From an uncultured Melioribacter sp. (GTDB lineage: Bacteria; Bacteroidota; Ignavibacteria; Kapaibacteriales; Kapaibacteriaceae), in NCBI GenBank assembly GCA_964393485.1, contig CAYMTW010000001.1:64832-128831 (forward strand): DNA of 64,000 nucleotides, read 5' to 3'. The notes beneath the pieces are model-generated. The model searched no databases. It was not told the origin of the DNA and was given only the letters and a program-made list of their open reading frames with translations. Both the position numbers and the translations under genes were made by a program. This document shows positions 6,732 through 62,513 of the stretch, piece by piece; the first letter of the stretch is position 1, and each line of letters starts with the position of its first letter.

Positions 6732-7374
6732 ATCAAAACAGGCTAAGTCCATTCGTCTCAATATGATCCTGGATCGACTTACCATCGCCTACCCAGATGC
6801 ACGGGTTGGACTTGACTTCACATCACCTCTTGAGCTGCTGATCGCCACGATCCTATCCGCCCAGTGCACCGATGAGCGTGTGAACAAGGTCACCCCGCCA
6901 CTCTTTGCCCAGTTCAAGAACGTCAGAGATTATGCCGAGGCCTCTCTCGATGAACTAGAAGAGTATGTCCGGACTACCGGTTTCTATAAAAACAAGGCCA
7001 AGAATATCCGGGAATGCTGCCGTCAGCTCCTTGATCGATTCTCGGGTGAGGTTCCGCGGACACTTGAGGAACTCGTCACGCTGCCGGGTGTAGGACGCAA
7101 GACGGCGAACTGTGTTCTGAGTAACTGCTTTGACATACCTGGTTTGACGGTCGATACTCATGTTACACGGATCACCAATCTTCTTGGGTTTGTTGACACG
7201 CAGGATGCTGTGAAGATTGAGTTTGCCTTGATGGAGATCCTCAATCCGGTGCGATGGAATCAGTTTGACACATTGATCATCAACCATGGACGGCGAACAT
7301 GTGTTGCCCGAAAACCACGATGTATCGACTGTACAATCATCGATCTTTGCCCATCCAAGAAAAAAACACCGTAG
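6718..7374 (+). CDS. nth: endonuclease III
   Basis: HhH-GPD motif LPGVGRKTANCVL and C-terminal 4Fe-4S cluster CX6CX2CX5C (CVARKPRCIDCTIIDLC). Confidence 0.95.
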   Translation: MARRESKQAKSIRLNMILDRLTIAYPDARVGLDFTSPLELLIATILSAQCTDERVNKVTPPLFAQFKNVRDYAEASLDELEEYVRTTGFYKNKAKNIRECCRQLLDRFSGEVPRTLEELVTLPGVGRKTANCVLSNCFDIPGLTVDTHVTRITNLLGFVDTQDAVKIEFALMEILNPVRWNQFDTLIINHGRRTCVARKPRCIDCTIIDLCPSKKKTP

Positions 7375-7438
7375 CGAAGTGTCACGAAATGCTCGCCAGA
7401 TTGCTCAATGGCCGAAACCACCGGAGAACACTTCGACC

Positions 7439-47552: not shown

Positions 47553-48668
47553 TTACCCCACGATCCGGACGTTTTGACCAGCGGATACCATCGTGGCTCC
47601 CTTGACGATCACACGTTGTCCACGTTCAAGACCCGCCGTAATCTCCACGCTACCGCCCGAGGTCAGCCCGGTAGTTACGTTGGCACGACCTACAAGCCCC
47701 TTGTCATTCACATAGTAGACATACGAACCCTGATTATCCTGCAGCACGGCAGCCAGTGGCAGAACGAGTACGTTCTTCAGTGTGACGTCATTGATCGATA
47801 CACGACAGGTGGTGTTCGGACGAAGCGCCCCTGGCACGGGGCTTATCGGTATCTCGAGCCGGAAAGTGCGGCTGGCCGGATTGACCAGGCGTGACACGGC
47901 CTTGATAACCGTCGAGACCGTATCACCGATCTCCGGAAACTCGATCTTCACGCGGTCTCCAAGCGTAACGGTCGAGAGAAATGTCTCCGCTACATCCACA
48001 ACGACGCGCACATCGCTCATATTCACAATGGTCAATGCGGGCATACCCGGCATGGCCATCTCACCAACCTTGGCGGTGATATTCTCAGCGAAGCCGCTGC
48101 GAGGAGCAGTGATCCGTGACATGGCCCGCTGCTCCTGGAGAGACTCCATTCGGCGTTCCAGCGCTTCCAGTTGATTCTTTGCCGTCAGATACTGTATCTC
48201 ACTGCCGGCCTTTTGCTCGAAAATCCGCTTCTGCTTATCAAACAGTGTACGTGCGAAGTCTATCTGGACCTCTACCTCTTTGATACCCTTGCGGATGAGT
48301 TCATCGTCCATCTCTACGAGGACCTGCCCCGCGGTAACTACTTGACCCGAGATCACGTTGACGCGTGTAATTCGTCCGGCCATCAGAGGAGAGATTGTGA
48401 TCGTTGAACGTGCGTCAACCGTGCCTTTTGCATCAACCAGGTGCACGAGGTCCGACGTTGTCGCGGCAATCACCGAGACCGGCGTGGCGGAAGTTCCTCC
48501 TGCGTCAGCCGGCAATGATGCTTCAAGTTCTTTGATCTCCTTTTCAATACGGAGCTTTTCAGCTCGCAGCTGGTCAAGTCGCTGCTTCGATGAAGGGGCT
48601 TCAGATTTCCCGCAGGAGATCAATAGCACGGCGAAGGGCAGCAGCCAAAGTGGTCGATTCATAAACAT
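47553..48668 (-). CDS. efflux RND periplasmic adaptor (MFP)
   Basis: Lipoprotein-like signal (LLISCGK), coiled-coil hairpin, lipoyl/beta-barrel motifs; immediately upstream of the RND pump. Confidence 0.9.
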   Translation of the reverse strand: MFMNRPLWLLPFAVLLISCGKSEAPSSKQRLDQLRAEKLRIEKEIKELEASLPADAGGTSATPVSVIAATTSDLVHLVDAKGTVDARSTITISPLMAGRITRVNVISGQVVTAGQVLVEMDDELIRKGIKEVEVQIDFARTLFDKQKRIFEQKAGSEIQYLTAKNQLEALERRMESLQEQRAMSRITAPRSGFAENITAKVGEMAMPGMPALTIVNMSDVRVVVDVAETFLSTVTLGDRVKIEFPEIGDTVSTVIKAVSRLVNPASRTFRLEIPISPVPGALRPNTTCRVSINDVTLKNVLVLPLAAVLQDNQGSYVYYVNDKGLVGRANVTTGLTSGGSVEITAGLERGQRVIVKGATMVSAGQNVRIVG

Positions 48669-49378
48669 CAGTGTTTTGATTGTGAATAATGTTCTTCGGT
48701 CTCGACGATCCGCCCATCGCGAATCGAAATGATGCGGTCTGCACGCTTTGCAAACTCTACGTCGTGGGTGACCATGAGAATGGTCTGATGATACTCGGTC
48801 TTGAGGTCGTTCAGGATATCGAGCACCATCGAGGTATTCTTAGTATCAAGGTTACCAGTTGGCTCGTCTCCAAAAATGATCTTTGGCTCATTGATCAGCG
48901 CCCGTGCAATAGCGACGCGCTGCTGTTGTCCGCCGGAGAGCTTACTCGAACGCTTGGTAGCCTGATCTGCCACTCCCAGCAACGCGAGCGTCTTCATAGC
49001 CCGATCTTCCATCTCGTCTTTTGAGAGCAGACCGCGGCGCTGGGCCGGGAGCATGACGTTTTGCAGGACCGTGAAATCTGGCAGTAGATAATGGAACTGG
49101 AATACGAATCCGATCATCGAGTTCCGGAAGTCTGCAAGAGCGTTCTTGCTGAGTGTTTTTATATCCACACCGTCGATCATGATGGTACCATCATAGATCG
49201 TATCCAGGGTCGACAGCGTGTACATAAGCGTTGTCTTACCACTACCAGAGGGTCCGACAAGCACAACGAACTCTCCCCGCTTGACGTCCAATGAAATGTC
49301 GTTCAAGACCTTGAATTCCACAGGCTCTGTGAAGGTCTTGGTTACATGCGACGCGCTAATGATCGGTTGCGGTGTCAT
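48668..49378 (-). CDS. ABC transporter ATP-binding protein (MacB/LolD type)
   Basis: Walker [11 protein letters not shown]-loop FVFQ, signature LSGGQQQR, Walker [14 protein letters not shown]-loop VTHD. Confidence 0.95.
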
Positions 49379-50646
49379 CGGCTTCTAATGATCTCCACAG
49401 GATCGAACCGCGCCGCTTTACGTGCAGGGAAATACCCGGCTACTGCCGTCGATGTGAGCGCGAACAAGAAAGCTGCAAGGTAGAACAACGGGTTGAAGTT
49501 GATGATCAAGTATTGCACGCTGACGAATCCTTGGATGTTCAGCGGTATCATGCCGACGATCTTGGACGTAATGAATCCGAGGATGAGGCCGAGAACTCCT
49601 CCAGTAGAACCAATGGCAATTGACTCTATCAGAAAGATCACACGAACATCACCATCACGATATCCCATTGCTTTTAGAATTGCTATATCAGGCATCTTCT
49701 CGTAGATGATCGTCATTAGAATGTTGAAGATGCCGAACCCTGAAACCACGAGAATTGAGATAATGACAAACGATACCGTGAGATTCTGAATACGGAAGAT
49801 CCCAAAGACATTAGCATTGGCAGCCTTCCAGTCCTCGGCCTTGTATCCGTAGAGCGATGAATACTCTGTCGCAACAGACTGAGCGATATCAACGTCGCGC
49901 AGTCGGACATTGATGTCCGTGATGTAGGCAGCAGACTGTTGCAGAAGACGCTGCGAATTGCGGATCGAAACATAGGCACGCGTGTTGTCCTGCAGCGTAA
50001 TTCCCGTCTTTGAGATGCCAACAACCTTCATTTCGAGGGCAACACCCTTCGATGAGATCACCGTGATGTTGTCATCAAGACGCACCCCGAGCTTGTCGGC
50101 CAGACCATAACCAAGAATGATACCATTCGGTAGCGTTTCCATCCGCTGAAGCTGGCCGGATACGAGATTATCCTTGATATGAAAGAGCTGATCTTCGCGA
50201 AGAATATCAACACCAGCCAGCGTTGCCGCCTGTTGCGACATGCCATAGCGAAGAATCCCCTGTAAACCAAGGTATGGAGCAACCCCTTCTACACGCGGAT
50301 CTCGTTCGATGTCTTGTAAGATCTGATAGCCATTACGAACACGACGTTCCTCATCACGGGGCTTCTGGTTGCGCACAACATTCCATGTGCTTGATGTATC
50401 GGAATCGAGATCGAGCACTTGTGGTCGTGATGTTCGCACATCGTTGAAGATGTGGACATGTGCCGTGGTGTTAACCGTCTTTTCAATGAAGTACGTCTGA
50501 AGGCCCGTCAGCAGACCTGCCTGGAAAATGAAAACGGTCACGCCAAACATCACGCCAAGCATCGCCACGATGGTTTGTCTCTTCTTACTGAAGAGGTGAA
50601 CCCAGGCAATGCGCAGGAGAGGACGCTGTGCGAAGAATTGTTTCAC
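49375..50646 (-). CDS. ABC transporter permease, MacB-like (periplasmic core domain + FtsX domain)
   Basis: N-terminal TM, ~230-aa periplasmic domain, and three C-terminal TMs with an FtsX-like pattern (AILKAMGY...). Confidence 0.9.
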   Translation of the reverse strand: MKQFFAQRPLLRIAWVHLFSKKRQTIVAMLGVMFGVTVFIFQAGLLTGLQTYFIEKTVNTTAHVHIFNDVRTSRPQVLDLDSDTSSTWNVVRNQKPRDEERRVRNGYQILQDIERDPRVEGVAPYLGLQGILRYGMSQQAATLAGVDILREDQLFHIKDNLVSGQLQRMETLPNGIILGYGLADKLGVRLDDNITVISSKGVALEMKVVGISKTGITLQDNTRAYVSIRNSQRLLQQSAAYITDINVRLRDVDIAQSVATEYSSLYGYKAEDWKAANANVFGIFRIQNLTVSFVIISILVVSGFGIFNILMTIIYEKMPDIAILKAMGYRDGDVRVIFLIESIAIGSTGGVLGLILGFITSKIVGMIPLNIQGFVSVQYLIINFNPLFYLAAFLFALTSTAVAGYFPARKAARFDPVEIIRSR

Positions 50647-51752
50647 TTAACGACCTCATCTGCATCCGTGAGGCCAGATACGATCTCGATGTATCGCAGG
50701 TCTTCCACACCCGTCTTTACGCGAACAGTTTGTTCCCTACCCTCACGAAGCACGGTAAGGACCTTCGTCGAAGGAACGATCTCTCTGGGTAGCACAAGTG
50801 CCTTAGCGCGCCGATCGATAACAATGTTCGCTTCGAGCGACATTCCCGGAAGAAGCCGCAAACCATCCGTATTGATCCGTGCAGTGACGGATGCTGTCTT
50901 GTCCTGATTCGATACTCGCGGTGTTACGCTGGTTACGCTACCATTGAAGGTTCTGTCTTTAAATGCATCGAGAGAATAGACGACAGACTGACCTGGAACG
51001 ATAAGCGCAACATCGGTTTCATCGACATTGAGCTCAACTTCGACGAGTGAGCTGCTACCGATCTCGACAAGGGGCTGCTGAGGCATGACGAGTTCACCGA
51101 CCTTGGGAAGCACGTCATACACTCGGCCGCTCTCGGCAGCGGTGAGAACGAACTCGTCACGTATGGAGCGCTGAATCGATACGTTGAGCTCAGCTGCTTT
51201 CTTCTCCGTAGCTAGGCGCCGCTTTGTTGCCTGATACCCGTCAAAAGCTTTTTCAAATTGCCGGCGAGATACATCGAACTGCGTCTGTGCAGCATCATAT
51301 GACGATTGCGATGTTGCCTGCTGTGAAAGAAGCCGCCGAAGGCGTGAGGCATTCGTCGAGTCCAGCGCTAATCGTGCTCGTGCTGCTTCGAGGTCTGCTG
51401 CCACAGATCGAAGAAGAGCCCCCTCTCCACTGGCATTATCGCTGGCTAGTCCATACGCTTCCTGCGCGGTAGCCACGGCGAGTTCGGAGGACACAGCTCG
51501 TATTCGTAGCAGAGCCTGACCCTTGACGACGGTGTCTCCCGGTGTGACGAGAACCTCTTCAATAACTCCCGGCACCTTTGTTGATGCACGGTAGAAGCCC
51601 ACCGGAAAGATCTTTCCGGATGCGTACACAGCCTGCGTAATGGTTCTGCGCGTGGGACGAACCGTTCCCTTTTCTTTGGAACATCCATCAGCAAGAAGCA
51701 GTGCCAGCACCGATGAGGCAATGACCAGAAGGAGATCGGCATGACGATTCAT
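50643..51752 (-). CDS. efflux periplasmic adaptor, HlyD/MacA-like
   Basis: Lipoprotein-like signal (LLADGCSK), lipoyl motif GVIEEVLVTPGDTVVKGQALLRI, coiled-coil. Confidence 0.85.
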   Translation of the reverse strand: MNRHADLLLVIASSVLALLLADGCSKEKGTVRPTRRTITQAVYASGKIFPVGFYRASTKVPGVIEEVLVTPGDTVVKGQALLRIRAVSSELAVATAQEAYGLASDNASGEGALLRSVAADLEAARARLALDSTNASRLRRLLSQQATSQSSYDAAQTQFDVSRRQFEKAFDGYQATKRRLATEKKAAELNVSIQRSIRDEFVLTAAESGRVYDVLPKVGELVMPQQPLVEIGSSSLVEVELNVDETDVALIVPGQSVVYSLDAFKDRTFNGSVTSVTPRVSNQDKTASVTARINTDGLRLLPGMSLEANIVIDRRAKALVLPREIVPSTKVLTVLREGREQTVRVKTGVEDLRYIEIVSGLTDADEVVK

Positions 51753-52417
51753 TGTTGTTTCCCAGAATCAGTGACAGTCCCAGGCGATTGCAGACCACGG
51801 ATGATGAGTTTGACGATATCACCGAGGATGATTTCTTCGGTGTCATTGATCCACCCCGGCGGGATGAGATTGTTTCGAAGGATCATCACGGAGCCCTTCA
51901 TGGCGATGATGATCTCCGCAACGACTCGTCGGATCGGACCATGCAACTGGAAGTAGCCCTCACGAACACCCTGCTCGACGATCGACTCAACGATTGTTAT
52001 TAGCCGTTCGTTGATCGACACGAAGTCCGTTATAACAGGATTCTCTGCCACTGATGAGATCATCAGGCCCACGTTTGTATGGGTCATCATCTGATAGAAG
52101 AAGACATTTTCCTGCGAATACGAATGGAACGTTGTGAACGCCTGTTTAAGCTTTTCTGGTGGTGAAAGCGGGCTGTCAGCAACGATCGTGATCGACGCCG
52201 TCAGGGTTCTCAAGTCATCGGCAAGGAGCCCCATGAGAAGTTCTTCCCGATTCCGGAAATACAGATACAGCGTCCCCTTTGCGAGCTCTGCCTCCTGGGC
52301 AATGCGCTCCATCGTGGTCGTTGCGATACCGTGTTTCAGAAACGCCACGCGGGCAGAGGACAAAATGTCCCGACGCCTCTGATCGCGTTCGCGTTCTTTG
52401 CGTTGTGTCGTTCCCAT
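51749..52417 (-). CDS. TetR/AcrR family transcriptional regulator
   Basis: N-terminal HTH ILSSARVAFLKHGIATTTMERIAQEAELAKGTLYLYF. Confidence 0.9.
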   Translation of the reverse strand: MGTTQRKERERDQRRRDILSSARVAFLKHGIATTTMERIAQEAELAKGTLYLYFRNREELLMGLLADDLRTLTASITIVADSPLSPPEKLKQAFTTFHSYSQENVFFYQMMTHTNVGLMISSVAENPVITDFVSINERLITIVESIVEQGVREGYFQLHGPIRRVVAEIIIAMKGSVMILRNNLIPPGWINDTEEIILGDIVKLIIRGLQSPGTVTDSGKQQ

Positions 52418-52435
52418 ACGTTGGTGTCTGTGCGG

Positions 52436-53779
52436 TTACTTATTCAGCACTGACCGCAGGTACTTCTGGTCGATCTGTCCTGTTGCCCGATCGAAATCTG
52501 CACGTGTGACGTGATAGTCCACAAGGGCATTGATGGAATTGACCCGTGATTGAGCCAAGGATGTTTCAGCATCGGTGATCTCGAGCAGACTTCCGGTGCC
52601 TTCGCGATATCGAATCCTGGCGATCTCATACCCACGCTGTGCCTGATCAACCGTGGACTTCTGGGCTTTCGAGCGTTGCGCGGCCGATTCCAGCTGGTTG
52701 ATGAGTGTACGCACCTGAAGTTTGATCAGATCAGTCACCTGGGTGAGTCGCTCCTGTGCAGTGTTAACGTCAATACTTGCCTGCTCAACCTTCTCATTGG
52801 TCCTAAGACCATTAAACAGATTTATTGAGAAGTTCAGTCCCACGAGCATGCTTGAAGCACTCTTCCAGTCGTTAAATGTATCACTCTGTCCTTGGTTCTG
52901 CCACTGACCAAAGGCGGCTAGAGTAGGATAGTAATCGGCCCGGCTCAGGTCCACCATGCGACGGCCAACCTCGATCTGTTGAGAAATGGCTTTGAGATCG
53001 AGATTTTCCCTTAGAGCCATCGAGACAGATGCATCCGTCTCCGGAGTAGCTTCCGGCCCTGTCAGCGCCTCGTCCGAAACGGTGATAGAATCGGCGAGGT
53101 CCATACCGATATATGTCTGCAGAGCAGCAAAGGCGGCATAACGCCCGGACTTCGCCTGCAGTACCATCGGTTGGGCGTTGGCAACAGCTACATCAGCCCT
53201 GATCTTGTCAAACTCGGCTACAAGTCCTTCTTGAAACAGGGCTGTAATGGTACGCTGCACCTCGCGAATATTCGTGAGGGTCGCTTCCGCAACGGTCGCA
53301 TACCCAGAGGCAGCCACTGCCTGATAATAGCGTTTCTTCGTCTCAGTTACGACCTCTGCCGTTGCAGCTCGCAACTGGGCCTCGGCTGCATCGCTGTAGA
53401 GCTGCGATGCCGATATCGCTGTGAGTACCGAACTGTTAAACAGAATCTGCTGCACCTGCGTTGTGACGTTGTATCCGTTGGTCAGACCAAACCGCAATGG
53501 TGCAACCTGCCCAGTCGCTGGATTGGGAAAGAAAAAGACGGGCAGCTGAATGTTGTGGTTGAAACCAGCCGCGAAACTCACCGACGGCAAAGCCGTTCCG
53601 TAGGCTTCTCGGACCTGGGATTCGGCTCGAGAAACGGCAAGGCGCGCTACAGAAATCGATTTGTTCCGCTTGATGGCAAGCTCGATGGCTTCGTCAAGAC
53701 GTAGCGTCTGAGCCGTTAGGCCAACCGTGAGAAACGGAACCAGGTACAGACCGAAGAACAACACTCGTGACAAGGGCAT
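52436..53779 (-). CDS. TolC family outer-membrane efflux protein
   Basis: Signal peptide and LRLDEAIELAIKRN start; two OEP repeats. Confidence 0.9.
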   Translation of the reverse strand: MPLSRVLFFGLYLVPFLTVGLTAQTLRLDEAIELAIKRNKSISVARLAVSRAESQVREAYGTALPSVSFAAGFNHNIQLPVFFFPNPATGQVAPLRFGLTNGYNVTTQVQQILFNSSVLTAISASQLYSDAAEAQLRAATAEVVTETKKRYYQAVAASGYATVAEATLTNIREVQRTITALFQEGLVAEFDKIRADVAVANAQPMVLQAKSGRYAAFAALQTYIGMDLADSITVSDEALTGPEATPETDASVSMALRENLDLKAISQQIEVGRRMVDLSRADYYPTLAAFGQWQNQGQSDTFNDWKSASSMLVGLNFSINLFNGLRTNEKVEQASIDVNTAQERLTQVTDLIKLQVRTLINQLESAAQRSKAQKSTVDQAQRGYEIARIRYREGTGSLLEITDAETSLAQSRVNSINALVDYHVTRADFDRATGQIDQKYLRSVLNK

Positions 53780-53798
53780 GGCATTTCCTTTAGTACTA

Positions 53799-53830
53799 TG
53801 ACGGTCGGTCAGTTTCCTGACTAACGGTCA
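53799..53830. promoter_or_regulatory. imperfect 32-bp palindrome, candidate TetR operator of the efflux operon
   Basis: TGACGGTCGGTCAG-TTTC-CTGACTAACGGTCA. 11 of 14 arm positions are complementary. It lies 20 bp upstream of the TolC start and abuts a one-mismatch -7 element at 53831-53838. Confidence 0.4.
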
Positions 53831-53881
53831 CAAAATTGTAGAAAGGTCATTTCCCGTGCAAGTGGTCATTTGTTAACATGG

Positions 53882-53889
53882 TAGATTTG
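53882..53889 (+). promoter_or_regulatory. Bacteroidota-type -7 promoter element TAnnTTTG upstream of uvrA
   Basis: TAGATTTG; 42 nt separate the motif from ATG 53932. It lies downstream of the first in-frame ATG at 53878. Confidence 0.45.
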
Positions 53890-53931
53890 TTGTCCATTTC
53901 GAAGAAAGCTCCCCATTTGGCCACATCGGAC

Positions 53932-56790
53932 ATGACCGAAACTGAGATCACGGCGATCAGGATCCGAGGTGCTCGCGAGCACAACCTGAAAGGCATCGAC
54001 CTCGATATACCTCGCGATCAACTCGTTGTGATTACCGGGCTAAGCGGATCGGGAAAGTCATCCATTGCGTTCGATACTGTGTTTGCCGAAGGGCAACGCC
54101 GCTACGTCGAAAGTCTGTCCAGTTATGCACGACAGTTCCTCGGTGTCATGAAGAAGCCCGACGTCGACGTCATTGAGGGACTCTCCCCAGCCATCTCGAT
54201 CGAGCAAAAAAGTATTGGGATGAGTCCACGCTCGACGGTTGGCACCGTGACTGAGATCTACGACTACATGCGTCTGCTGTATGCAAAGGTTGGAGTCCAG
54301 TACTGCGTTTCATGCCAGATTCCGGTCAAGCAGCAAACTGTAGATCAGATCATTGCGTCCTTGCTCGCCCTGGGCGTAGGTACCCGCATTCAGATCCTTT
54401 CACCGGTGATCAAGGGGCGAAAAGGTCATTACCGTGAGCAATTGGATACGTTCAGGCGTCAGGGATTTGTGAGAGTGCGCATTGATGGTGAGTTGAAGGA
54501 GATCACCGAAGGCATGCAGCTGGCACGGTATAAGATGCATACCATTGAGTTAGTCATTGATCGACTGGTGATTGAGGATTCCCCTACCAAGCGGCTTACA
54601 GAGAGCATCGAAACAGCATTGAATCTCGGCGAGGGCGGCCTAACGGTGCTCTACGAAACGGCACCTGATTCCTGGCAAGAGAGCTTCTTCAGCACAAGCT
54701 ATGCGTGTCCGCAGTGCGGAACGTCCTACGAGACACCAGCTCCGAATATGTTCTCGTTTAATTCGCCCTACGGGGCATGCCAGACATGCGACGGACTCGG
54801 TGAAATGCAGGACTTCGATCCTTCTCTTGTGATTCCCGATCCGAATGTTTCCATCGCCAAAGGCGGCATCGCCCCACTTGGTCCACAGCGTGAGACGTGG
54901 TTATGGAAACAGGTTGTGGCGTACTGCCAAAAGAAGAACGTATCTCTGACGGAGCCGATCACTAAGATTCCACAGGAAACTTTGCATGATCTGCTTTTCG
55001 GACCCGACGGTGACTCGGATAGCGCGGCTGTGTATGGCACGACTTCCCAACACCGTTTCATTGGTGTCTGTCCGTCTCTGCGGCATCAATTCGAACACAC
55101 CACCTCTGCGTCGGTCAAGAAATCCATCGAAAAGTACTTTGCAACCGTATTGTGCCGAACCTGCCAAGGTGGACGTCTCAAGATCCCGCATCTTCACGTG
55201 CGGTTGGCAGAGGAATCGATTGATGCACTCTGCTCGCTTGATGTTGGAGAAACACGTTTGTGGTTTGAGGCACTGCCAGAAAAGCTAACAGACCGTCAGA
55301 ACCTCATTGCCCAGCTTATCCTGAAGGAGATCGGACATCGTCTGGAGTTTCTCGACGATGTCGGACTAGGTTACCTCACTCTGAATCGACGTGCCAGAAC
55401 GCTCTCAGGGGGAGAGTCTCAACGCATACGACTTGCATCGCAAATTGGATCGCGACTGGTCGGCGTAACATACGTACTGGATGAGCCGTCCATCGGCCTT
55501 CACCAACACGACAACAGGAAACTGATCGACTCGCTCAAACGGCTGCGCGATGCAGGCAACACTGTTCTCGTAGTTGAACACGATCGTGAGATGATCGAAG
55601 AAGCCGATACAATGATCGATGTGGGTCCGGGTGCTGGCGTACACGGCGGCTCAATTGTAGCAGTCGAGTCGCAACAACGCCTTCGCGCGCTGCTCGGGGG
55701 CAAGGTCAAAAACGCGTCAGACTCCGTTACACTCCGATATATCAGCGGTCAGGACACGGTATATCGACCGGCTGAGCGTCGCACTGGGAATGGCTTTCTC
55801 CTGGAGCTCAAAGGTGCCACGGGCAATAACCTGCGCGATGTTAACCTCGAGATTCCGCTCGGCACCTTCACATGTATCACCGGTATGAGTGGTTCAGGAA
55901 AGAGCTCGCTCATCAATGAAACGTTGTATCCGATCCTTGCCGCCAAACTTCATCGGGCGGAAGGCCAGCCCCTTGCCTATGAGTCGATTCACGGCCTTGA
56001 AAAGATTGACAAGGTGATCGAGATCGATCAGACACCGATCGGCCGCACGCCTCGTTCCAACCCTGCAACCTATACAGGGCTCTTTGGATTAATCCGTGAT
56101 TTCTATACGCTCCTTCCCGAAGCTCGCATCCGTGGATACAAGGTGGGGCGATTCTCCTTCAACGTCTCCGGTGGACGCTGCGAAGAGTGTGAAGGGGCCG
56201 GACTGAAGAAGATCGAAATGAATTTCCTGGCGGACGTGTATGTCCCCTGCGACACCTGTGGTGGCAAGCGCTACAATGCAGAAACGCTCACGGTAACATT
56301 CAAAGGAAAGTCGATCGCTGATGTTCTAGCCATGACCGTGGAGGAGGCATCAGTCTTCTTTGCCGATATCCCCAAAATCTCACATCGTCTAAAGACCCTT
56401 CTCGATGTTGGCCTTTCGTATATCACACTTGGACAGCAGGCTACGACCCTATCAGGGGGCGAGGCACAACGAGTGAAGCTGGCAACAGAGCTGGCAAAAT
56501 CATACACGGGGAAGACACTGTATCTCCTCGATGAGCCGACCACTGGATTACACTTCGAAGATGTAAGTCTTCTCATGAAGCTGCTGCACCAACTTGTTGA
56601 GCGTGGCAATACCGTGGTCGTCATCGAACACAACCTGGATGTAATCCTCAGTGCCGATCATCTGGTAGATCTCGGACCGGGAGGCGGCAAAGACGGTGGA
56701 AGAATTGTAGCAACCGGGACACCCGAACAAGTGGCCTGTGTACAGGATTCTCTGACAGGTCTATACATCGGCAAGGAACTGATAAAATAA
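53932..56790 (+). CDS. uvrA: excinuclease ABC subunit A
   Basis: IRIRGAREHNLKGIDLDIPRD..VVITGLSGSGKSS, two ABC modules (LSGGESQR, LSGGEAQR), zinc-finger CXXC pairs. Start set to ATG 53932 by homology to the UvrA N-terminus; the ORF is open from 53878. Confidence 0.97.
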   Translation: MTETEITAIRIRGAREHNLKGIDLDIPRDQLVVITGLSGSGKSSIAFDTVFAEGQRRYVESLSSYARQFLGVMKKPDVDVIEGLSPAISIEQKSIGMSPRSTVGTVTEIYDYMRLLYAKVGVQYCVSCQIPVKQQTVDQIIASLLALGVGTRIQILSPVIKGRKGHYREQLDTFRRQGFVRVRIDGELKEITEGMQLARYKMHTIELVIDRLVIEDSPTKRLTESIETALNLGEGGLTVLYETAPDSWQESFFSTSYACPQCGTSYETPAPNMFSFNSPYGACQTCDGLGEMQDFDPSLVIPDPNVSIAKGGIAPLGPQRETWLWKQVVAYCQKKNVSLTEPITKIPQETLHDLLFGPDGDSDSAAVYGTTSQHRFIGVCPSLRHQFEHTTSASVKKSIEKYFATVLCRTCQGGRLKIPHLHVRLAEESIDALCSLDVGETRLWFEALPEKLTDRQNLIAQLILKEIGHRLEFLDDVGLGYLTLNRRARTLSGGESQRIRLASQIGSRLVGVTYVLDEPSIGLHQHDNRKLIDSLKRLRDAGNTVLVVEHDREMIEEADTMIDVGPGAGVHGGSIVAVESQQRLRALLGGKVKNASDSVTLRYISGQDTVYRPAERRTGNGFLLELKGATGNNLRDVNLEIPLGTFTCITGMSGSGKSSLINETLYPILAAKLHRAEGQPLAYESIHGLEKIDKVIEIDQTPIGRTPRSNPATYTGLFGLIRDFYTLLPEARIRGYKVGRFSFNVSGGRCEECEGAGLKKIEMNFLADVYVPCDTCGGKRYNAETLTVTFKGKSIADVLAMTVEEASVFFADIPKISHRLKTLLDVGLSYITLGQQATTLSGGEAQRVKLATELAKSYTGKTLYLLDEPTTGLHFEDVSLLMKLLHQLVERGNTVVVIEHNLDVILSADHLVDLGPGGGKDGGRIVATGTPEQVACVQDSLTGLYIGKELIK

Positions 56791-56808
56791 TCCCCTCGTT
56801 TTCGGAGA

Positions 56809-59109
56809 TTGCACGATGCCTGGTACCAATTCGTCGTGGCGCCGGGCTTGCAGGGGCAATGGTGGCGTACGCAACGCCCAACGAACTATCAACAATCAGC
56901 TTTGAACGTGAATATCAGCATCAAGAACCAGCTTCAGAGGTGCCTGCGCGACATTGCCGAAGCATCGAACATCACTGAGGCGAATGCCATCTTCCATGAT
57001 CGCAGTCATGGATGCGTTGACGATGGTGGCATCATCATTGACCGCGTTGCCGAGGTCCTTCGAGATGTCGGTATTGCTGTCAGCGTCCACGCTCCCAGCG
57101 GGCCATTACCACATCTTGCTCACGGAGTAATGTGGTCGGATGAACGTGGCGACCTGCATCATGCGCATCGAACTGGATCATCACAATACTCGGTTCACGA
57201 TTATGGCTCGGGCACTGATACGGTCTATACCTTAGCAGAGATACTCGATGTCGTCAAGGCACACCCGTGTGTTGTCGTTCCGACCGTAGCACGATCTTTC
57301 CTGAATATGAGCGGGCAGGCAGGACCGAGTCTTGGACAAGGTGATACGGCACCACTGTCTCCGTCCTATTCACCGTCTGTGAAGTTCCGCACTGTCTGGC
57401 CGTTGATGAAGAACATTATCTCATCAGAACGCCGTGACATTCTTATCGTCGTTGTCTATTCGATTTTTGTCAGCCTACTCGGACTGGTTGTACCGCTGAG
57501 CAGTCAGGCTATCGTCAATGCAGTGGCACTTGGCGTCTTCAGTCGTCAGCTGGTCGTCTTGTGCATCGTGGTATTCTTCTCGATGATCGTAACGGCGGTG
57601 ATGGTTGTTTTTGAACGTCAACTGATCGACATCATACAACGACGGCTGTTCGTTACCACAGCGTTTGACATTGTTCATCGCATCCCAAAGATCCGAGAGG
57701 ATGCCGTGCGTAATATGTATATCCCTGAACTAGTGAACCGCTTCTTCGACGTTATTACGGTACAAAAGGTCGTCGGCAAGTTTCTTCTCGAAGGTGTAGG
57801 AGCTCTCCTGATGCTCCTCACGGGGTTGCTTGTTCTGTTTCTTTACCATCCGTTCTTTCTCATCTATGATCTGATCTTCCTTGCATTCATACCCGTGCTA
57901 GTGTTCGTACTTGGTCGTGGCTCGCTTACAACAGCTCTTGGTGTTTCGAATGCGAAATACGATACAGCCGCTTGGCTAGAAGAGGTTGCGAGAAATCAAC
58001 GATCTATCAAACTAGATTCCGACCCCGAGTTCTCTCCCGGCCGGCTTGATGGCATTACAGTTAGATACGTTGACGCCAAGGCGCGCCACTACCGCATCAT
58101 TGCCCGCCAGATGCTGGGTTCATACATTTTCAAGGCGTTTGCCACAGTCGGCATTCTTGCTCTCGGCGGCATTCTAGTGCTCGAACAAGCGATTTCGTTG
58201 GGCCAACTCGTTGCGGCCGAGATCATCATCATTATGATCATCGGAGCCATTGAAAAGTTGCTGACCCAATTCGACGAGTTCTATGACTTTGCGGCAGCGC
58301 TCTACAAACTTCAATCGATTGGCAAGCTTGCATCAGAGAGGGCCGATGGTGACGTTGTGCCCAAATTGGTTGGAGGGGGCTCTATCGAGCTTGACTCCGT
58401 TTCTTTTACTGAGGGCACGTCCTCGGTCGTACGCAACGTCACACTACGCATCAATGCCGGGGAACGTGTCAGTATCGTTGGAGGCAGTGGCAGTGGCAAG
58501 TCCACCGTTGCCAAGCTCGTTCTCGGTCTGTTATTGCCTACGACTGGTCATGTTCGGGTAAACGGTATCGATACGAAGGTTGCTGACCTTCAGTCACTGA
58601 GATCACATGTAGGCTACCTTGACCCCGACGACTCTCTCATGCCTGGCACAGTGCACGACAACATAGCGTTGGGCCGTCGTGCGTCGGCATCTGACGTTGA
58701 CGAAGTGCTGAGACTCTGTCTCTTGGATCAAGAGGTGCGCAACCTCCCTCTCGGATTGCGGACAGAAATTGTTGCACTTGGGGCAAACCTGTCCTACAGC
58801 GTTCGGCGCAGGATCCTTCTTGCTCGCGTTCTTTTGAGTAGACCTTCTGTCGTCATTATTGACAGTGCGTTCCAAGGACTTGAAGACGGCCTCAAGATGC
58901 GTCTTGTAGAATCACTCATGGAGAATACCTCGACAACGGTAGTCAACATATCGTTTGATACGGATATCATCGCCATGACCAGTCAGGTTCACGTGCTTTC
59001 TTCAGGTGAACTTGTATGCTCTGGAACTCTCGAGGACGTCTTACGAAAGCGACCTGACCTTGGCAGCCTCCTAATCCGCCGTAAGCCCCTTTCCGGAGGA
59101 CAGCAATGA
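56809..59109 (+). CDS. ABC exporter-like protein (N-terminal C39-like domain + 6-TM domain + degenerate NBD)
   Basis: TMD at ~aa 205-490. The NBD has an intact Walker A (GGSGSGKST), but the Q-loop, signature (LSYSV), Walker B (VVIIDS) and H-loop are degenerate. Start is uncertain: TTG 56809, and the first in-frame ATG is codon 108. Confidence 0.75.
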   Translation: MHDAWYQFVVAPGLQGQWWRTQRPTNYQQSALNVNISIKNQLQRCLRDIAEASNITEANAIFHDRSHGCVDDGGIIIDRVAEVLRDVGIAVSVHAPSGPLPHLAHGVMWSDERGDLHHAHRTGSSQYSVHDYGSGTDTVYTLAEILDVVKAHPCVVVPTVARSFLNMSGQAGPSLGQGDTAPLSPSYSPSVKFRTVWPLMKNIISSERRDILIVVVYSIFVSLLGLVVPLSSQAIVNAVALGVFSRQLVVLCIVVFFSMIVTAVMVVFERQLIDIIQRRLFVTTAFDIVHRIPKIREDAVRNMYIPELVNRFFDVITVQKVVGKFLLEGVGALLMLLTGLLVLFLYHPFFLIYDLIFLAFIPVLVFVLGRGSLTTALGVSNAKYDTAAWLEEVARNQRSIKLDSDPEFSPGRLDGITVRYVDAKARHYRIIARQMLGSYIFKAFATVGILALGGILVLEQAISLGQLVAAEIIIIMIIGAIEKLLTQFDEFYDFAAALYKLQSIGKLASERADGDVVPKLVGGGSIELDSVSFTEGTSSVVRNVTLRINAGERVSIVGGSGSGKSTVAKLVLGLLLPTTGHVRVNGIDTKVADLQSLRSHVGYLDPDDSLMPGTVHDNIALGRRASASDVDEVLRLCLLDQEVRNLPLGLRTEIVALGANLSYSVRRRILLARVLLSRPSVVIIDSAFQGLEDGLKMRLVESLMENTSTTVVNISFDTDIIAMTSQVHVLSSGELVCSGTLEDVLRKRPDLGSLLIRRKPLSGGQQ

Positions 59110-60329
59110 GTAATGGTCGATTTACAATGGATCTGCTAGGCAGCCCTACCATTCACCGCCGTCTTACCGTTGTGCTGACGGTGATTCTTTTCGGATCGAT
59201 ACTGTTTCTCGTTTTCGTGCCCTGGCAGCAATCGGTTGTCGGAAGTGGTCGCGTGACGTCGTTCACGCCTCAGGCTCGTCCGCAGACTGTTGAAAGTGCC
59301 ATCAGCGGCAGGATTATGCGCTGGTATGTCAAGGAAGGTGATCGCGTCGAAAAAGGTGATACGATCGTTGTCCTCGCAGACATCAACGTGAATTTCATGG
59401 ATTCCGAGATGATCGAGCGCATGCGCCTGCTGCGCAACCGCACGTTTGCTGCACAGGAACAGTCGATCGCTTCTGCTCTGCAACGTCGCAAGCAAGCTGA
59501 GCAGCGCTACGAAGCATCCCGCGCTCGTTACGACAACACAAAGGTGGAGACCGAAACAGCGCGCATTCGTTCAAATCGGGCTGACACGCTCTTCCGACAG
59601 GACCTCGTCTCGCGTCGAGAATTGGAATCTGCACAGCTTTCCTTGCAGAAGGCAGTCGCGGACTCTGCATCTGCTATGGCTGGCTTGCTTGCAGCACGTC
59701 AGGACATTGAGATGTTTTCTGCTGAGGAGGAACGAATCATAAACCAGGCCTACTCAACGATGCATGAGATGGATATCCGTGTGGCTAACGCTGAGGGCCG
59801 TAAAGGGGCTGGCGTTGTCACAGCTCCCATCGGAGGTACAATCGTGCGGATTGAACGCTACGGTGAGGGTATGATGGTCAAGGAAGGCACTCCGCTGGCT
59901 TTGATCGTCCCTGCCGGTGATGACCGCGCCGTCGAACTTTATGTCGGAAGCATGGATGCGGCTCTTGTCGAGCCTGGACGTCTGGTCTCGCTGCAGTTCA
60001 GCGGCTTTCCCGCGTTCCAGTTCTCGGGCTGGCGAAACATTCAGGTGGGAGTATTCCACGGTCGTGTGAAAGTGGTCGATGCCACAGATGATGGAAGCGG
60101 AAGGTTTCGCGTGCTTGTCGTCCCTGCCGAAGGCGATCCATATGTTCAATGGCCTAGCAACCGATACCTTCGTCAGGGTACAGACGCCACAGGCTGGGTG
60201 TTACTTGACGAGGTTGCAATTGGCTATGAACTCTGGCGGCAGCTCATGGGCTTCCCTCCACAGTACCCCGTAGCAGAGACCAAGTCAGGTAAAGACAAAA
60301 AGTCCACTGAAGTCAAAGGTGAGAAATGA
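59106..60329 (+). CDS. HlyD family secretion (membrane fusion) protein
   Basis: Single TM LTVVLTVILFGSILFLVFV, lipoyl-like GRIMRWYVKEGDRVEKGDTIVVL, long coiled-coil; ATGA overlap with the ABC gene. Confidence 0.85.
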   Translation: MSNGRFTMDLLGSPTIHRRLTVVLTVILFGSILFLVFVPWQQSVVGSGRVTSFTPQARPQTVESAISGRIMRWYVKEGDRVEKGDTIVVLADINVNFMDSEMIERMRLLRNRTFAAQEQSIASALQRRKQAEQRYEASRARYDNTKVETETARIRSNRADTLFRQDLVSRRELESAQLSLQKAVADSASAMAGLLAARQDIEMFSAEEERIINQAYSTMHEMDIRVANAEGRKGAGVVTAPIGGTIVRIERYGEGMMVKEGTPLALIVPAGDDRAVELYVGSMDAALVEPGRLVSLQFSGFPAFQFSGWRNIQVGVFHGRVKVVDATDDGSGRFRVLVVPAEGDPYVQWPSNRYLRQGTDATGWVLLDEVAIGYELWRQLMGFPPQYPVAETKSGKDKKSTEVKGEK

Positions 60330-61708
60330 TCATGCAGCTGTTCCGGTTTCGGCTACTGCTGTTCATCACGGCCATGATTCCAGTGACCGCATGGTCACAG
60401 CGCAACACCCCCCTGCGCGAGTTTCTTTCACTTGTCGAACGGACTAACCCAGCACTTCGGGCAGCTTCACTCGAGCCTGATGTTGCCGATGCAGATCTGC
60501 AAGCCGCACTGGGTCGGTTCGATCCGTTCCTCGCCGTCAGTTACGAATCGAAATTCAAGAGCGGACAGGACAAGCTCACTGTTCTTGAGGGGGCGATCGA
60601 ACAGCCCCTTGACATGCTTTTCGGACCGAAGATCAAGGCTGCGTATCAACGTGGTTCTGGTCTGTCAATCAATCCGGAAGATCTTACGGCCGGTGCCGGA
60701 GAAGCATCCTTCGGTGTCAGCCTTCCATTGCTGCAAGGCGTCTTTACAGATTCACGACGCAATCAACTGAGAAAAGCTGAATTGCGTCCGGATGCCGCAA
60801 AGGCACAGTTTACGATCGAGCGTAATGCCCTTCTCCGCGCGGCTGCGATGCGATACCTTGACTGGAGCGAGGCCGTCGAGAATGTCTCCGTGGCTGACAC
60901 GCTGCTCAGTCTCTCGAGGCGTAGGCAGGATTTTATTATCCGGCGCTCGGTAAGTGGCGAGGCAGCGATGATCGATTCGACAGAAGGCTCTCAGGAGGTT
61001 CGTCGGCGTGAGGGAGAACGGCTTCGTGCCCTTCGAATCGCAGAGCAGATTGGCATCGAGATCAACGGTCTTGTGTTCAGCAATGGCCTACGCACCTTTG
61101 ATCGCACTATTGAGCAACCGGCAATCTTGACGGGCGTTGTAGATTCTGTGCGCTCGGTTCAGAATGCGGTCAGCATTGCCTTCTCCGCCCGTCCGGAACT
61201 GCGCCGCGCTCAGTTGACTCTTCAGGCTGCACGGCTTGATTCTGGGCTTGCACGCGAATTCATGCGACCGAATCTCGAGTTTGATGCCGGCCTTGTAGCT
61301 CTCAATGCCTCGACACCGGGTTCGCTGGACTACAAGTTCGGCCTGCGCATGCAGCAGCCGTTATTATTCCGGCAAGCGTCTGCCGGAGTTCAGACAACAT
61401 CAATTGCGGTTAACCGAGCGGAGTTTGCCCTGCAGCTTGCCGAACGAGTCGTTGAGGTGGATGTGCGAAATGCCCTGATCGCGTTGGAACGATCGATAGA
61501 ACGCCGTGTGATCGCCGAAGAAGAAGTTCGGCTGGCCCTGATTATGGTCAATGCCGAACAGCGCCGCTTTTCGGCCGGTGACGCTTCCCTACTGACGGTC
61601 AACCTCCGAGAGCGATTCTACGGCGAAGCGCTACAACGTCTGGTTTCGGCTAAGGCGGACGTTGAGCGGGCCAACATTGCCCTTCTGTGGGCGATGGGTG
61701 TTATCTGA
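60326..61708 (+). CDS. TolC family outer-membrane protein
   Basis: Signal peptide ...ITAMIPVTAWSQ and two OEP-type repeats; ATGA overlap with the HlyD gene. Confidence 0.85.
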   Translation: MIMQLFRFRLLLFITAMIPVTAWSQRNTPLREFLSLVERTNPALRAASLEPDVADADLQAALGRFDPFLAVSYESKFKSGQDKLTVLEGAIEQPLDMLFGPKIKAAYQRGSGLSINPEDLTAGAGEASFGVSLPLLQGVFTDSRRNQLRKAELRPDAAKAQFTIERNALLRAAAMRYLDWSEAVENVSVADTLLSLSRRRQDFIIRRSVSGEAAMIDSTEGSQEVRRREGERLRALRIAEQIGIEINGLVFSNGLRTFDRTIEQPAILTGVVDSVRSVQNAVSIAFSARPELRRAQLTLQAARLDSGLAREFMRPNLEFDAGLVALNASTPGSLDYKFGLRMQQPLLFRQASAGVQTTSIAVNRAEFALQLAERVVEVDVRNALIALERSIERRVIAEEEVRLALIMVNAEQRRFSAGDASLLTVNLRERFYGEALQRLVSAKADVERANIALLWAMGVI

Positions 61709-61714
61709 TTGGCG

Positions 61715-61722
61715 TATCTTTG
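61715..61722 (+). promoter_or_regulatory. Bacteroidota-type -7 promoter element TAnnTTTG upstream of etfB
   Basis: CGTATCTTTGC, the same 11-mer as upstream of queA; 44 nt separate the motif from ATG 61767. Confidence 0.45.
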
Positions 61723-61766
61723 CAGCCCCATTTTTCAGAACATTTCATGACATTTCCGAGCATACC

Positions 61767-62513
61767 ATGAACATTCTCGTGTGCATCAGTCAGGTGCCGG
61801 ATACGACTACCAAGGTGGCCGTTGGACCAGACGGTACATCGATTAATACCGCTGGGGTGAAGTTCATCCTCAACCCCTATGATGAGTTTGCCATTGAAGA
61901 AGGACTACGTCAACGGGAAAAGCACGGTGGAACGGTCACGGCGGTCTCTGTCGGGCCCGATTCCGTCAAGGAAGTTCTTCGGACGGCGCTGGCCATGGGA
62001 GTTGATACTGCCGTGCATGTTAAGGACGACCAGCGTACAGATTCCTACGTCGTGGCAAGCTCCATCGCCGACATGGCCCGTGAGTCTGCACCAGACCTTG
62101 TCATCTTCGGCCGTCAGTCCATCGACTTCGATTCCTTCCAGCTACCGTCGATGGTTGCCGAGCTACTGGGATGGGCCGATATCGCAATGGTCTCATCTCT
62201 TGCCATCGATGGTGGTACGATCAACGCTGAAAGCGATATCGAAGGTGGTAAGATGTCCGTCACGGCTTCGCTGCCATGCGTTATCAGCGCCCAGAAGGGG
62301 CTCAATGATCCGCGCTATCCCAAGCTCCCGGACATTATGAAGGCCAAATCAAAGCCGATCGCCGAGCGTGCCCCTGTAACCTCGGAGCCGCGCGTTGCGA
62401 CCGTTGCAATGAGCCTACCCGTAACCAAGCGCCTGAATAAGGTGCTGGGCGATTCTGACGCCGACCTGCAGGAACTTGTCCGCCTCCTCCACGAAGAAGC
62501 AAAGGTGATCTGA
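61767..62513 (+). CDS. etfB: electron transfer flavoprotein subunit beta
   Basis: MNILVCISQVPDTTTKV...NPYDEFAIEEGLR; 248 aa. Start set to ATG 61767; the ORF is open from 61662 and overlaps TolC. Confidence 0.95.
   Translation: MNILVCISQVPDTTTKVAVGPDGTSINTAGVKFILNPYDEFAIEEGLRQREKHGGTVTAVSVGPDSVKEVLRTALAMGVDTAVHVKDDQRTDSYVVASSIADMARESAPDLVIFGRQSIDFDSFQLPSMVAELLGWADIAMVSSLAIDGGTINAESDIEGGKMSVTASLPCVISAQKGLNDPRYPKLPDIMKAKSKPIAERAPVTSEPRVATVAMSLPVTKRLNKVLGDSDADLQELVRLLHEEAKVI

Follow-up and report, generated by a model that had tools for sequence, protein, structure and literature searches.

An ABC exporter-like protein with degenerate catalytic motifs in a three-gene export operon of an uncultured Melioribacter sp. 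and across a multi-phylum family

We analyzed a stretch of 64,000 nucleotides, here called the window, from the genome assembly of an uncultured Melioribacter sp. (GCA_964393485.1, contig CAYMTW010000001.1), in which a gene for an ATP-binding cassette (ABC) protein is followed by genes for an HlyD-type membrane fusion protein (MFP), or adaptor, and a TolC-like outer membrane factor. The nucleotide-binding domain (NBD) of the ABC protein has kept the Walker A motif and the aspartate of Walker B, and has lost the catalytic glutamate, the H-loop histidine, the Q-loop glutamine, the LSGGQ signature and the aromatic residue of the A-loop. The same condition was fixed in the closest relatives, and the substitution patterns show that it is a selected state. 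We propose, with a confidence that falls a little short of even, that the protein is the sole ABC subunit of an HlyB/PCAT-like three-part system that works independently of ATP hydrolysis and is perhaps ion-driven via a glutamate in transmembrane helix 6 (TM6).

The NBD was recognized by the Pfam model ABC_tran (PF00005) over residues 542 to 688, with a score of 86.3 bits against a cut-off of 25; residues are numbered here from position 56809, the start of the longer, 766-residue frame, unless stated otherwise. The register of the motifs was taken from phmmer alignments to solved ABCB exporters, which paired each motif with its canonical counterpart (Table 1). Of the residues expected of a competent ABC ATPase, the lysine of Walker A (Lys564) and the aspartate of Walker B (Asp685) were present and conserved. 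A preceding reading of the same DNA from its letters and open reading frames, here called the sequence-only reading, had placed the motifs at exactly these positions, and the profile alignment did not shift them to consensus residues. Its statement that only Walker A had been spared holds for the Glu, the His, the Gln, the signature and the D-loop, but not for Walker B, in which the hhhhD pattern including Asp685 is intact, and its list of lost motifs did not include the A-loop, where the aromatic residue is replaced by Glu535. Contigs from 4 public DNA runs (4 studies) covered the NBD at 99% identity or more, and their sole difference within Walker A, Pro606, LSYSV, Ser686 and Phe716 was a synonymous C>T change at position 58794; the motif sequence is therefore not an assembly error.

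The 15 closest database homologues (64% to 100% identity) all contained an intact Walker A motif and the Asp-Ser pair of Walker B, and the H-loop residue was Phe in 11 of them and Val in 4. To place these proteins in their genomic setting, we fetched 36 loci around relatives from the same genus, family, and order. The gene for uvrA was located directly upstream in 25 loci, the adaptor gene came next in 34 and the outer factor gene was present in 33, while a second ABC gene of the family was found in none of the 36. Within the family, the order was uvrA, ABC, adaptor, outer factor, etfB, etfA, and nuclease, and since this order is kept the ABC genes can be treated as positional orthologues.

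These orthologues fell into 3 clades with different motif states. Clade A, with 8 loci of which the window is one, had retained nothing but Walker A and the Asp, and its genes were found in the same uvrA-ABC-MFP-OMP-etfBA setting, where OMP denotes the outer membrane factor. Clade B (14 loci) had kept Walker A, the A-loop Tyr, the Asp-Glu pair and the His, in combination with a non-canonical signature (LSYGM, LALGV) and a Pro, Ser or Ala at the Q-loop position. In clade C (5 loci), Walker A was lost (e.g. GPKPLELTH), the Asp-Glu pair was changed to Asn-Asn or Asn-Gly, and the His was lost. A maximum-likelihood tree placed clades A and C as sisters with a support of 100, nested inside clade B; the shared stem of A and C had a length of 0.52 and the stem of C a length of 0.95. 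The simplest reading of this topology is one loss of both Glu and His, on the stem of A and C, after which nucleotide binding would have been lost in C.

The reading frames were intact in all 8 clade-A orthologues. For the L053/L054 pair, which was the only one with unsaturated synonymous divergence (dS), the ratio of nonsynonymous to synonymous divergence (dN/dS) was 0.04 for the NBD (0.023/0.559), 0.016 for the membrane domain and 0.13 for the N-terminal domain, whereas in the other pairs dS was saturated (medians of about 1.7 to 2.1) and the ratios of 0.03 to 0.05 are indicative only. Across the 8 clade-A genes, all nine codons of Walker A varied synonymously with zero replacements, and the DPDD, LSYSV and DS codons likewise showed synonymous turnover with the residues fixed; the Ser686 codon was AGT in all 8. 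As a control we used a canonical MsbA-like exporter encoded by these genomes, whose dN values were 0.091 for the membrane domain and 0.094 for the NBD, as compared to 0.065 and 0.102, respectively, for the clade-A proteins. Clade A thus holds its dead NBD under as much constraint as a working one, and its membrane domain under more. In the two closest pairs of clade C, dN was 0.02 to 0.04 for the membrane domain and 0.17 to 0.20 for the NBD. Between the window's genome and its relative G015, dN was 0.092 for the ABC protein, 0.084 for UvrA and 0.027 for the adaptor, which was 95.6% identical to its orthologue and more conserved than UvrA. The sequence-only reading had asked whether the degeneracy was conserved or a sign of decay, and the 15 homologues, the NBD ratio of about 0.04 and the synonymous-only changes in the motifs all point to a selected state.

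Conservation was also examined over 141 representatives of the family. Columns with at least 85% identity numbered 56 in the membrane domain versus 19 in the NBD, and the mean frequency of the top residue was 0.565 versus 0.445. ABC exporters usually conserve the NBD more than the membrane domain, and the family thus shows the reverse. Conservation was strongest at the start of TM3 (NRFFD..TVQK), in the periplasmic turn between TM3 and TM4 (YHP), and in the turn between TM5 and TM6 together with the top of TM6 (LGQLVAAE, a further family motif), while the positions still conserved in the NBD are structural: glycines, the Thr and Gly of the X-loop, the ARA motif, and a Pro. A phmmer search with the membrane domain alone yielded no Protein Data Bank chain at an expectation (E) value of 0.001 or lower. 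In the model, TM6 covers residues 431 to 472 in the numbering of the 733-residue form. The position of Glu471 in this helix was occupied by Glu in 97% of the 141 representatives and in all 34 aligned orthologues of the Kapabacteria group, and it was kept in three proteins without an NBD, described below. By analogy with the proton-driven transporters discussed further on, we consider Glu471 a candidate ion-coupling residue.

We also noted an unusual residue ahead of coupling helix 2, where TM4 extends into the cytoplasm. Val379 (57943-57945) occupies the position of the Glu in the family motif ESKxKY, which is found in 96% of the representatives. All of clade A has Val here, and clade B has Val, Thr or Ala; the Glu is present in clade C and in 6 of the 7 more distantly related members of the same order.

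The order of the domains in the protein is a C39-like domain, a six-helix type IV membrane domain and the NBD. The full-length model had a predicted local distance difference test (pLDDT) score of 88.8, with most of the NBD above 90. In Foldseek searches with this model, PCAT1 was the best match (E = 4.5e-31), with E values in the range of 1e-26 to 1e-31 for PCAT1, HlyB, TmrAB, MsbA and PrtD, and the comparison with HlyB of the HlyB/D complex (8dck_A) gave template modelling scores of 0.76/0.81 over 725 columns. TM1 to TM6 and two short helices, predicted to be coupling helices, at residues 264 to 267 and 364 to 370 of the model correspond to the type IV exporter fold. By sequence, the Pfam model ABC_membrane gave only 21 bits with a cut-off of 28, and ComA was the best full-length bacterial match among the solved structures in a phmmer search (E = 2.3e-38). 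The NCBIfam models for type I and bacteriocin exporters all scored under their cut-offs, with 189 versus 853 bits for TIGR03796, 187 versus 693 for TIGR03375, 179 versus 510 for TIGR01842, 175 versus 524 for TIGR01193 and 147 versus 726 for TIGR01846. Compared with the named groups, which were the HlyB, LssB and PrtD subfamilies and the bacteriocin/NHLP exporters, the protein is built like an HlyB/PCAT-type exporter and falls outside every named subfamily.

When the N-terminal 139 residues were modelled (pLDDT of 86), they showed a papain-like C39 fold. VIA-align gave Z scores of 10 to 11 over 114 to 126 residues against the peptidase domains of LahT, PCAT1 and ComA, and of 8.9 to 10.2 against the C39-like domain of HlyB. 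The latter (7sgr, 3zua) was also the top match in Foldseek at an E value of about 2e-3, where the best value was 1.6e-3 and nothing was obtained at 0.001 or lower. Pfam identified no family in the N-terminal 171 and 204 residues, even at an E value of 10, and no match over the N-terminal region of 65 long family members. In the alignment, the Cys of the N-terminal domain in the window's clade was not kept in clade B and there was no conserved His. Since no Cys/His pair is conserved, the domain is probably non-catalytic, as in HlyB. We therefore describe the N-terminus, which the sequence-only reading had missed, as a predicted C39-like fold, detected by structure only and lacking the catalytic pair. 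It is followed by a low-complexity linker that extends to about position 57400. The C39-like domain was deleted in clade C (L066 to L069 and L071) and in four clade-B genes (L057, L058, L082 and L083), and in L057 and L058 the ABC gene begins about 50 bases after uvrA. Its deletion in several orthologues indicates that the domain is dispensable.

To study the family beyond these relatives, a profile made from 27 of them was compared with 1.84 billion representatives, and the best 150 matches, all above 520 bits and 3 of them truncated, were analyzed. Among these 150, the Walker A Lys was present in 129, the Walker B Asp in 135 and the catalytic Glu in 66, with Asp in 27 and Gly in 25 at the latter position. 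The H-loop His was found in 50, the Q-loop Gln in 7 and an exact LSGGQ in 1. In addition, the patterns PE[LI]xNRFFD and [TS][LI]GQ[LF]VA[AS]E[LI] were searched against a collection of species genomes, which gave at least 600 stretches, of which 80 loci were kept. These represent about a dozen phyla, including Planctomycetota, Acidobacteriota, Bacteroidota, Myxococcota, Verrucomicrobiota, Gemmatimonadota, and Armatimonadota, and also cover Obscuribacterales, Caenarcaniphilales, Bdellovibrionales, and Methylococcales. Cultured bacteria with a family member include Chloroherpeton thalassium ATCC 35110, Cyclobacterium, Arcicella, and Rhodopirellula.

The ABC gene was a single frame in 79 of the 80 loci and a split frame in 1, and it was followed by the adaptor gene in 75 and accompanied by the outer factor gene in 66; many of the loci without one of these genes broke off at a contig end. 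We coded the motif states in the order Lys, Asp, Glu, and His, writing x where the residue was lost. The window's state, KDxx, was found in 26 loci, Kxxx in 15 (two of which were truncated genes), KDEH in 14, xDEx in 7, KDEx in 6, xDxx in 6, KxEx in 3, xDxH in 2, and xxxx in 1, which was a truncated gene. The full set of four residues was thus kept in only 14 loci, and the state of the window is the commonest in a large multi-phylum family and not confined to a single operon, which the sequence-only reading had missed.

In a sample of 401 genomes from the phylum, 92 genomes (52 of 179 genera) were positive for the family, and in 3 of the 92, all from Bacteroidota, the open frames comprised just 334 to 349 residues. 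The proteins at these three loci, of 334 to 340 residues, end just after TM6 and have kept ELVNRFFD, YHP and GQFVAAE. Their genes are directly followed by the adaptor gene, with overlapping starts, and then by the outer factor gene, and no frame for an NBD was found nearby. Separately, the ABC gene at locus L070 of a genome from the same family (G029:C14) was split by a TAG codon into frames at 6698-8101 (467 amino acids) and 8126-8761 (211 amino acids), roughly at the border between the membrane domain and the NBD. The split may be natural, mark a pseudogene or stem from a sequencing error.

In the mechanism that we tentatively favor, the ABC protein would act as the sole, and hence homodimeric, inner-membrane subunit together with the HlyD-type adaptor and the TolC-like channel, and it would belong to a family that can do without ATP hydrolysis. 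The sequence-only reading had likewise deduced a homodimer with two crippled sites from the one ABC gene, which agrees with the finding that uvrA and the MFP gene flank a single ABC gene, both in the window and at the related loci. The NBD has the fold, the P-loop and the Mg-binding Asp, and would probably bind nucleotide. Because the Glu, the His, the Gln, the A-loop Tyr and a proper signature are lost, neither of the two composite sites should hydrolyze ATP at a useful rate. The selected function would then sit in the membrane domain and the adaptor, and a substrate would still be exported via the membrane domain, the adaptor and the outer channel with energy from an ion gradient or the membrane potential, with Glu471 as the probable site of coupling. 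Of the NBD, only a module for nucleotide sensing, or for dimerization and structure, would be left. The analysis shows the motif states and their upkeep by purifying selection, the single ABC gene with no linked partner, the constant linkage to the adaptor and outer factor genes, the stepwise series of orthologues and the relatives without an NBD, whereas the homodimer, nucleotide binding, loss of hydrolysis, continued transport and the ion energy source are steps that we infer. Two suggestions in the sequence-only reading fit with this mechanism: that the protein may bind ATP without hydrolyzing it is consistent with the strictly conserved Walker A motif, and that it may be energized otherwise is consistent with the sister clade without Walker A and the natural relatives without an NBD.

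A broader reading, which we regard as possible but doubtful, is that a multi-phylum exporter family is abandoning ATP, from a non-hydrolyzing sensor via a nucleotide-blind stub to a deleted NBD, and relies on ion-motive force through the TM6 Glu. Living relatives display all four stages, and the positional orthologues within one genus display three of these.

Several observations weigh against the hydrolysis-independent mechanism. Walker A is perfectly kept in the window's clade, so nucleotide still matters here, and slow or unconventional hydrolysis, for example with the acidic YLDPDD at the Q-loop, could in principle occur. The idea of ion coupling draws on one conserved Glu and an analogy. 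Clade B has kept the full Lys, Asp, Glu, and His set; some family members (clade B and 14 of the 80 wider loci) may be true ATPases, and the ancestor of the family was probably a real ATPase. No substrate was identified: the genome contains no RTX-type repeat protein (PF00353) and no C39 peptidase (PF03412), other types of substrate lying outside the search, and no candidate substrate gene was found in the conserved cassette at the 36 loci. The system was absent from 5 of the 28 genomes sampled in the genus, including G017 and G027 (100% complete), and from G034 of the same family, also rated 100% complete, and it is therefore dispensable. The genomes of the genus are all metagenome assemblies. 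Because dS was saturated in most pairs, the selection analysis leans mainly on one pair and on the dN comparisons. The Q-loop column adjoins gaps in the wide alignments, which makes its tally the least certain, and the count of exporters used below in the search for a partner is a crude test.

An unlikely explanation, although the best of the alternatives, is that the protein is a static scaffold or gate, in which a dead ABC dimer nucleates or plugs the assembly of adaptor and channel as a tether or as a CFTR-like, nucleotide-gated passive conduit. The loss of the catalytic residues with Walker A kept resembles ATP-locked Glu-to-Gln mutants, the peaks of conservation at the periplasmic ends of TM1, TM3/4, and TM5/6 and in the adaptor could mark an interface rather than a pathway, and no substrate gene is linked. 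However, a mere tether would not be expected to keep as many as 56 columns of its membrane domain at 85% identity or above in different phyla, a buried Glu among them, and the clade C proteins and the forms without an NBD, which have the same membrane domain, are beyond nucleotide gating.

It is quite unlikely that the protein is still driven by ATP as a low-flux exporter, through slow hydrolysis or substitute acidic residues (YLDPDD, QGLED). In its favor, the P-loop and the Mg-binding Asp are strictly conserved, the replacement motifs are conserved as well, and 27 of the 150 best matches have Asp at the Glu position, where Asp occurs in active exporters. Nevertheless, five elements have been lost together, namely the A-loop Tyr, the Q-loop Gln, the second Gly and the Gln of the signature, the Glu and the His. 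The sister clade has further lost Walker A and the Asp while its membrane domain is still constrained, and forms without an NBD exist.

The sequence-only reading had also suggested a partner encoded elsewhere, such that a heterodimer with an unlinked consensus half-transporter would provide one working site. Degenerate sites are the rule in heterodimeric exporters, as described in a review (PMC7756269), and the window's genome (rated 100% complete, 122 contigs) encodes three other half-transporters and one fused exporter. However, these next-best exporters were at most 26% identical to the protein, and 24% to 29% identical over the aligned parts, and they look like ordinary types: MsbA-like with all consensus motifs, SmdA-like with Asp-Asp in Walker B, SmdB/MsbA-like with LSVGQ, and a fused ABCC-like protein. 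They are all encoded away from the operon. Neither a paralogue nor a further ABC gene adjoined the family gene in any of 116 related loci (36 + 80), the number of PF00664 matches per genome was not raised (5 to 8 in clade A, 6 to 9 in clade B, and 7 in clade C), and exactly one family member was present in 91 of the 92 positive genomes of the phylum. A family-specific and highly conserved membrane domain also favors self-pairing. With low identity, no linkage, flat counts, and a single family member, a dedicated unlinked partner seems very unlikely, and this was the one option of the sequence-only reading that the analysis did not support. The fused ABCC-like exporter (G000:C57:8172-11405) is a protein of 1077 residues with an unread base (X) in its second half.

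Recent pseudogenization of the NBD is hardly credible and already contradicted. Many motifs are lost, the L070 gene is split and the system is missing from some genomes, but all 8 clade-A genes have intact frames, the NBD evolves under constraint with synonymous-only changes in the motifs, and its structure is modelled with confidence.

The ABC gene is linked to the genes for the HlyD-type adaptor and the TolC-type factor as in type I secretion operons (Table 1). The start of the adaptor gene overlaps the stop of the ABC gene by 4 bases, and the start of the outer factor gene overlaps the stop of the adaptor gene. Both products scored under the cut-offs of the specific models, with 86 bits for the adaptor against type_I_hlyD and 55 bits for the outer factor against type_I_sec_TolC. 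On the 3' side of the outer factor gene are etfB, etfA, and a gene with a bifunctional nuclease domain. Scans of positions 53600-62000 gave 10 promoter-like sites as compared to 5.2±3.0 expected from shuffled sequences, and 5 terminator-like sites as compared to 6.7, none of which were above chance. Genes around the operon were mostly saturated for dS (>1) between the window's genome and G015, with a lower value for etfB alone (0.39). It was also noted that dS was 0.23 to 0.27 for the canonical MsbA-like exporter in the same two genomes (L171, G000:C2:71270-73770, and L167), which hints at either a recent exchange or an unusual codon constraint.

A MacB-type system is transcribed divergently from uvrA, and this adjacency is kept within the genus. 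Its ATPase (48668-49378, minus strand) has fully canonical motifs, including TH, so the other ABC proteins of the organism appear to be ordinary. The system was rejected as an energy source for the ABC protein because a permease, an adaptor, an outer channel and a canonical ATPase of its own are all present. DNA nearly identical to positions 56700-61800 (at least half of the sampled words) was found in 18 metagenome runs from 8 studies, which represent river, freshwater, reservoir, and drinking water samples; no RNA run was listed for these positions, and the assembly itself may have come from 4 of the entries.

Table 1. Coordinates of the genes, domains and motifs discussed in the text, as positions in the window
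Feature	Position	Strand	Remarks
MacB-type system	48668-53779	minus	TolC-like factor, TetR regulator, adaptor, FtsX/MacB permease, ATPase of 237 amino acids
uvrA	53878-56790		Upstream of ABC gene
Longer open frame of ABC gene	56809-59109	+	TTG start at 56809, 766 amino acids
ABC gene	56908-59109	+	GTG start at 56908, 733 amino acids; database form of identical sequence has the same 733 amino acids
N-terminal C39-peptidase-like domain	56908-57300	+	Papain-like fold in model
Membrane domain TM1-TM6	57403-58329	+	Helix limits from full model
Family motif PELVNRFFD	57724-57750	+	Membrane domain
Family motif YHP	57844-57852	+	Membrane domain
Glu471	58219-58221	+	About seven residues below periplasmic end of TM6
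A-loop position	58411-58413	+	Glu535; Tyr in clade B
Walker A GGSGSGKST	58480-58506	+	Intact, includes Lys564; pairs with GSSGSGKST of solved exporters
Q-loop position	58624-58626	+	Pro606 for Gln; yldPd pairs with lvsQe
Signature position LSYSV	58789-58803	+	Pairs with LSGGQ
Walker B VVIIDS	58849-58866	+	Asp685 kept; Ser686 (58864-58866) for catalytic Glu
D-loop position QGLE	58873-58884	+	Opposite SALD; viiDSAfqgLE pairs with lllDEATSALD
H-loop NISFDT	58945-58962	+	Phe716 (58954-58956) for His; iSFD pairs with iAHR
HlyD-type membrane fusion (adaptor) gene	59106-60329	+	Biotin_lipoyl_2, HlyD_3 and HlyD_D23 matches
TolC-like outer membrane factor gene	60326-61708	+	OEP, 104 bits, two stretches

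Among known systems, HlyB-HlyD-TolC of E. coli (7sgr, 8dck) has the same three-gene logic and the same order of domains in the ABC protein. HlyB needs ATP hydrolysis. It has consensus catalytic motifs, whereas the window's protein lacks the Glu, the His, the Gln, LSGGQ and the A-loop Tyr and scored 147 bits with the NCBIfam model for HlyB, far from the cut-off of 726. Also in contrast to HlyB, the conserved part of the family is the membrane domain and not the NBD, and no RTX substrate was found in the genome. PCAT1, ComA and LahT provided the best structural matches, PCAT1 for the whole model and all three for the N-terminal domain, but the window's protein differs from them in the absence of the conserved Cys/His pair and of a detectable Pfam Peptidase_C39 match, in its dead NBD, and in the presence of an adaptor and an outer channel alongside it.

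Heterodimeric exporters such as TM287/288, TmrAB, BmrCD, and CFTR show similar losses of the Glu, the His and the signature with ATP binding kept (PMC7756269). They retain one consensus site in a second, paralogous gene or half, whereas no such second half-transporter was found here and a single gene would leave both sites degenerate. SbmA and BacA resemble the membrane domain of an ABC exporter without an NBD and are driven by protons via conserved glutamates, as stated in PMC8442886, which also cites earlier work in which LmrA without its NBD was energized by a proton gradient. For LmrA, PMC6155054 reports that proton-coupled transport depends on Glu314 in TM6 and that the NBD-less LmrA-MD conducts ions. 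These proteins may serve as a precedent for an ABC-exporter-like membrane domain run by protons. The relatives without an NBD resemble SbmA in this respect, whereas the window's protein has both an NBD and predicted coupling helices, of which SbmA has neither. Furthermore, the window's system is a three-part system of the export type, while SbmA is an importer.

In the full-text literature that was searched, outside subscription papers, we found neither this family nor a single-gene ABC exporter in which both sites are degenerate, and passages of two reviews (PMC7756269, PMC8277102) do not mention such a case. For the Kapabacteria, the literature found consisted of metagenome surveys only. The within-genus series of three states, the control with a canonical exporter, the test for an unlinked partner and the confirmation of forms without an NBD are what the window contributes.

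In general, ABC exporters are defined by ATP hydrolysis, and degenerate sites are regarded as tolerable only in combination with a second consensus site. A single-gene exporter with two dead sites under strong selection raises the question of what powers or replaces transport. The series within the genus offers matched natural variants in which the Glu and the His are kept, only Walker A is kept, or nothing is kept. For annotation, these genes are labelled as ABC transporter ATP-binding proteins and would be counted as ATP-driven pumps. If the family has indeed been abandoning ATP, it would represent a natural bridge from primary-active ABC exporters to SbmA-like secondary transporters, in the export direction and coupled to an outer channel.

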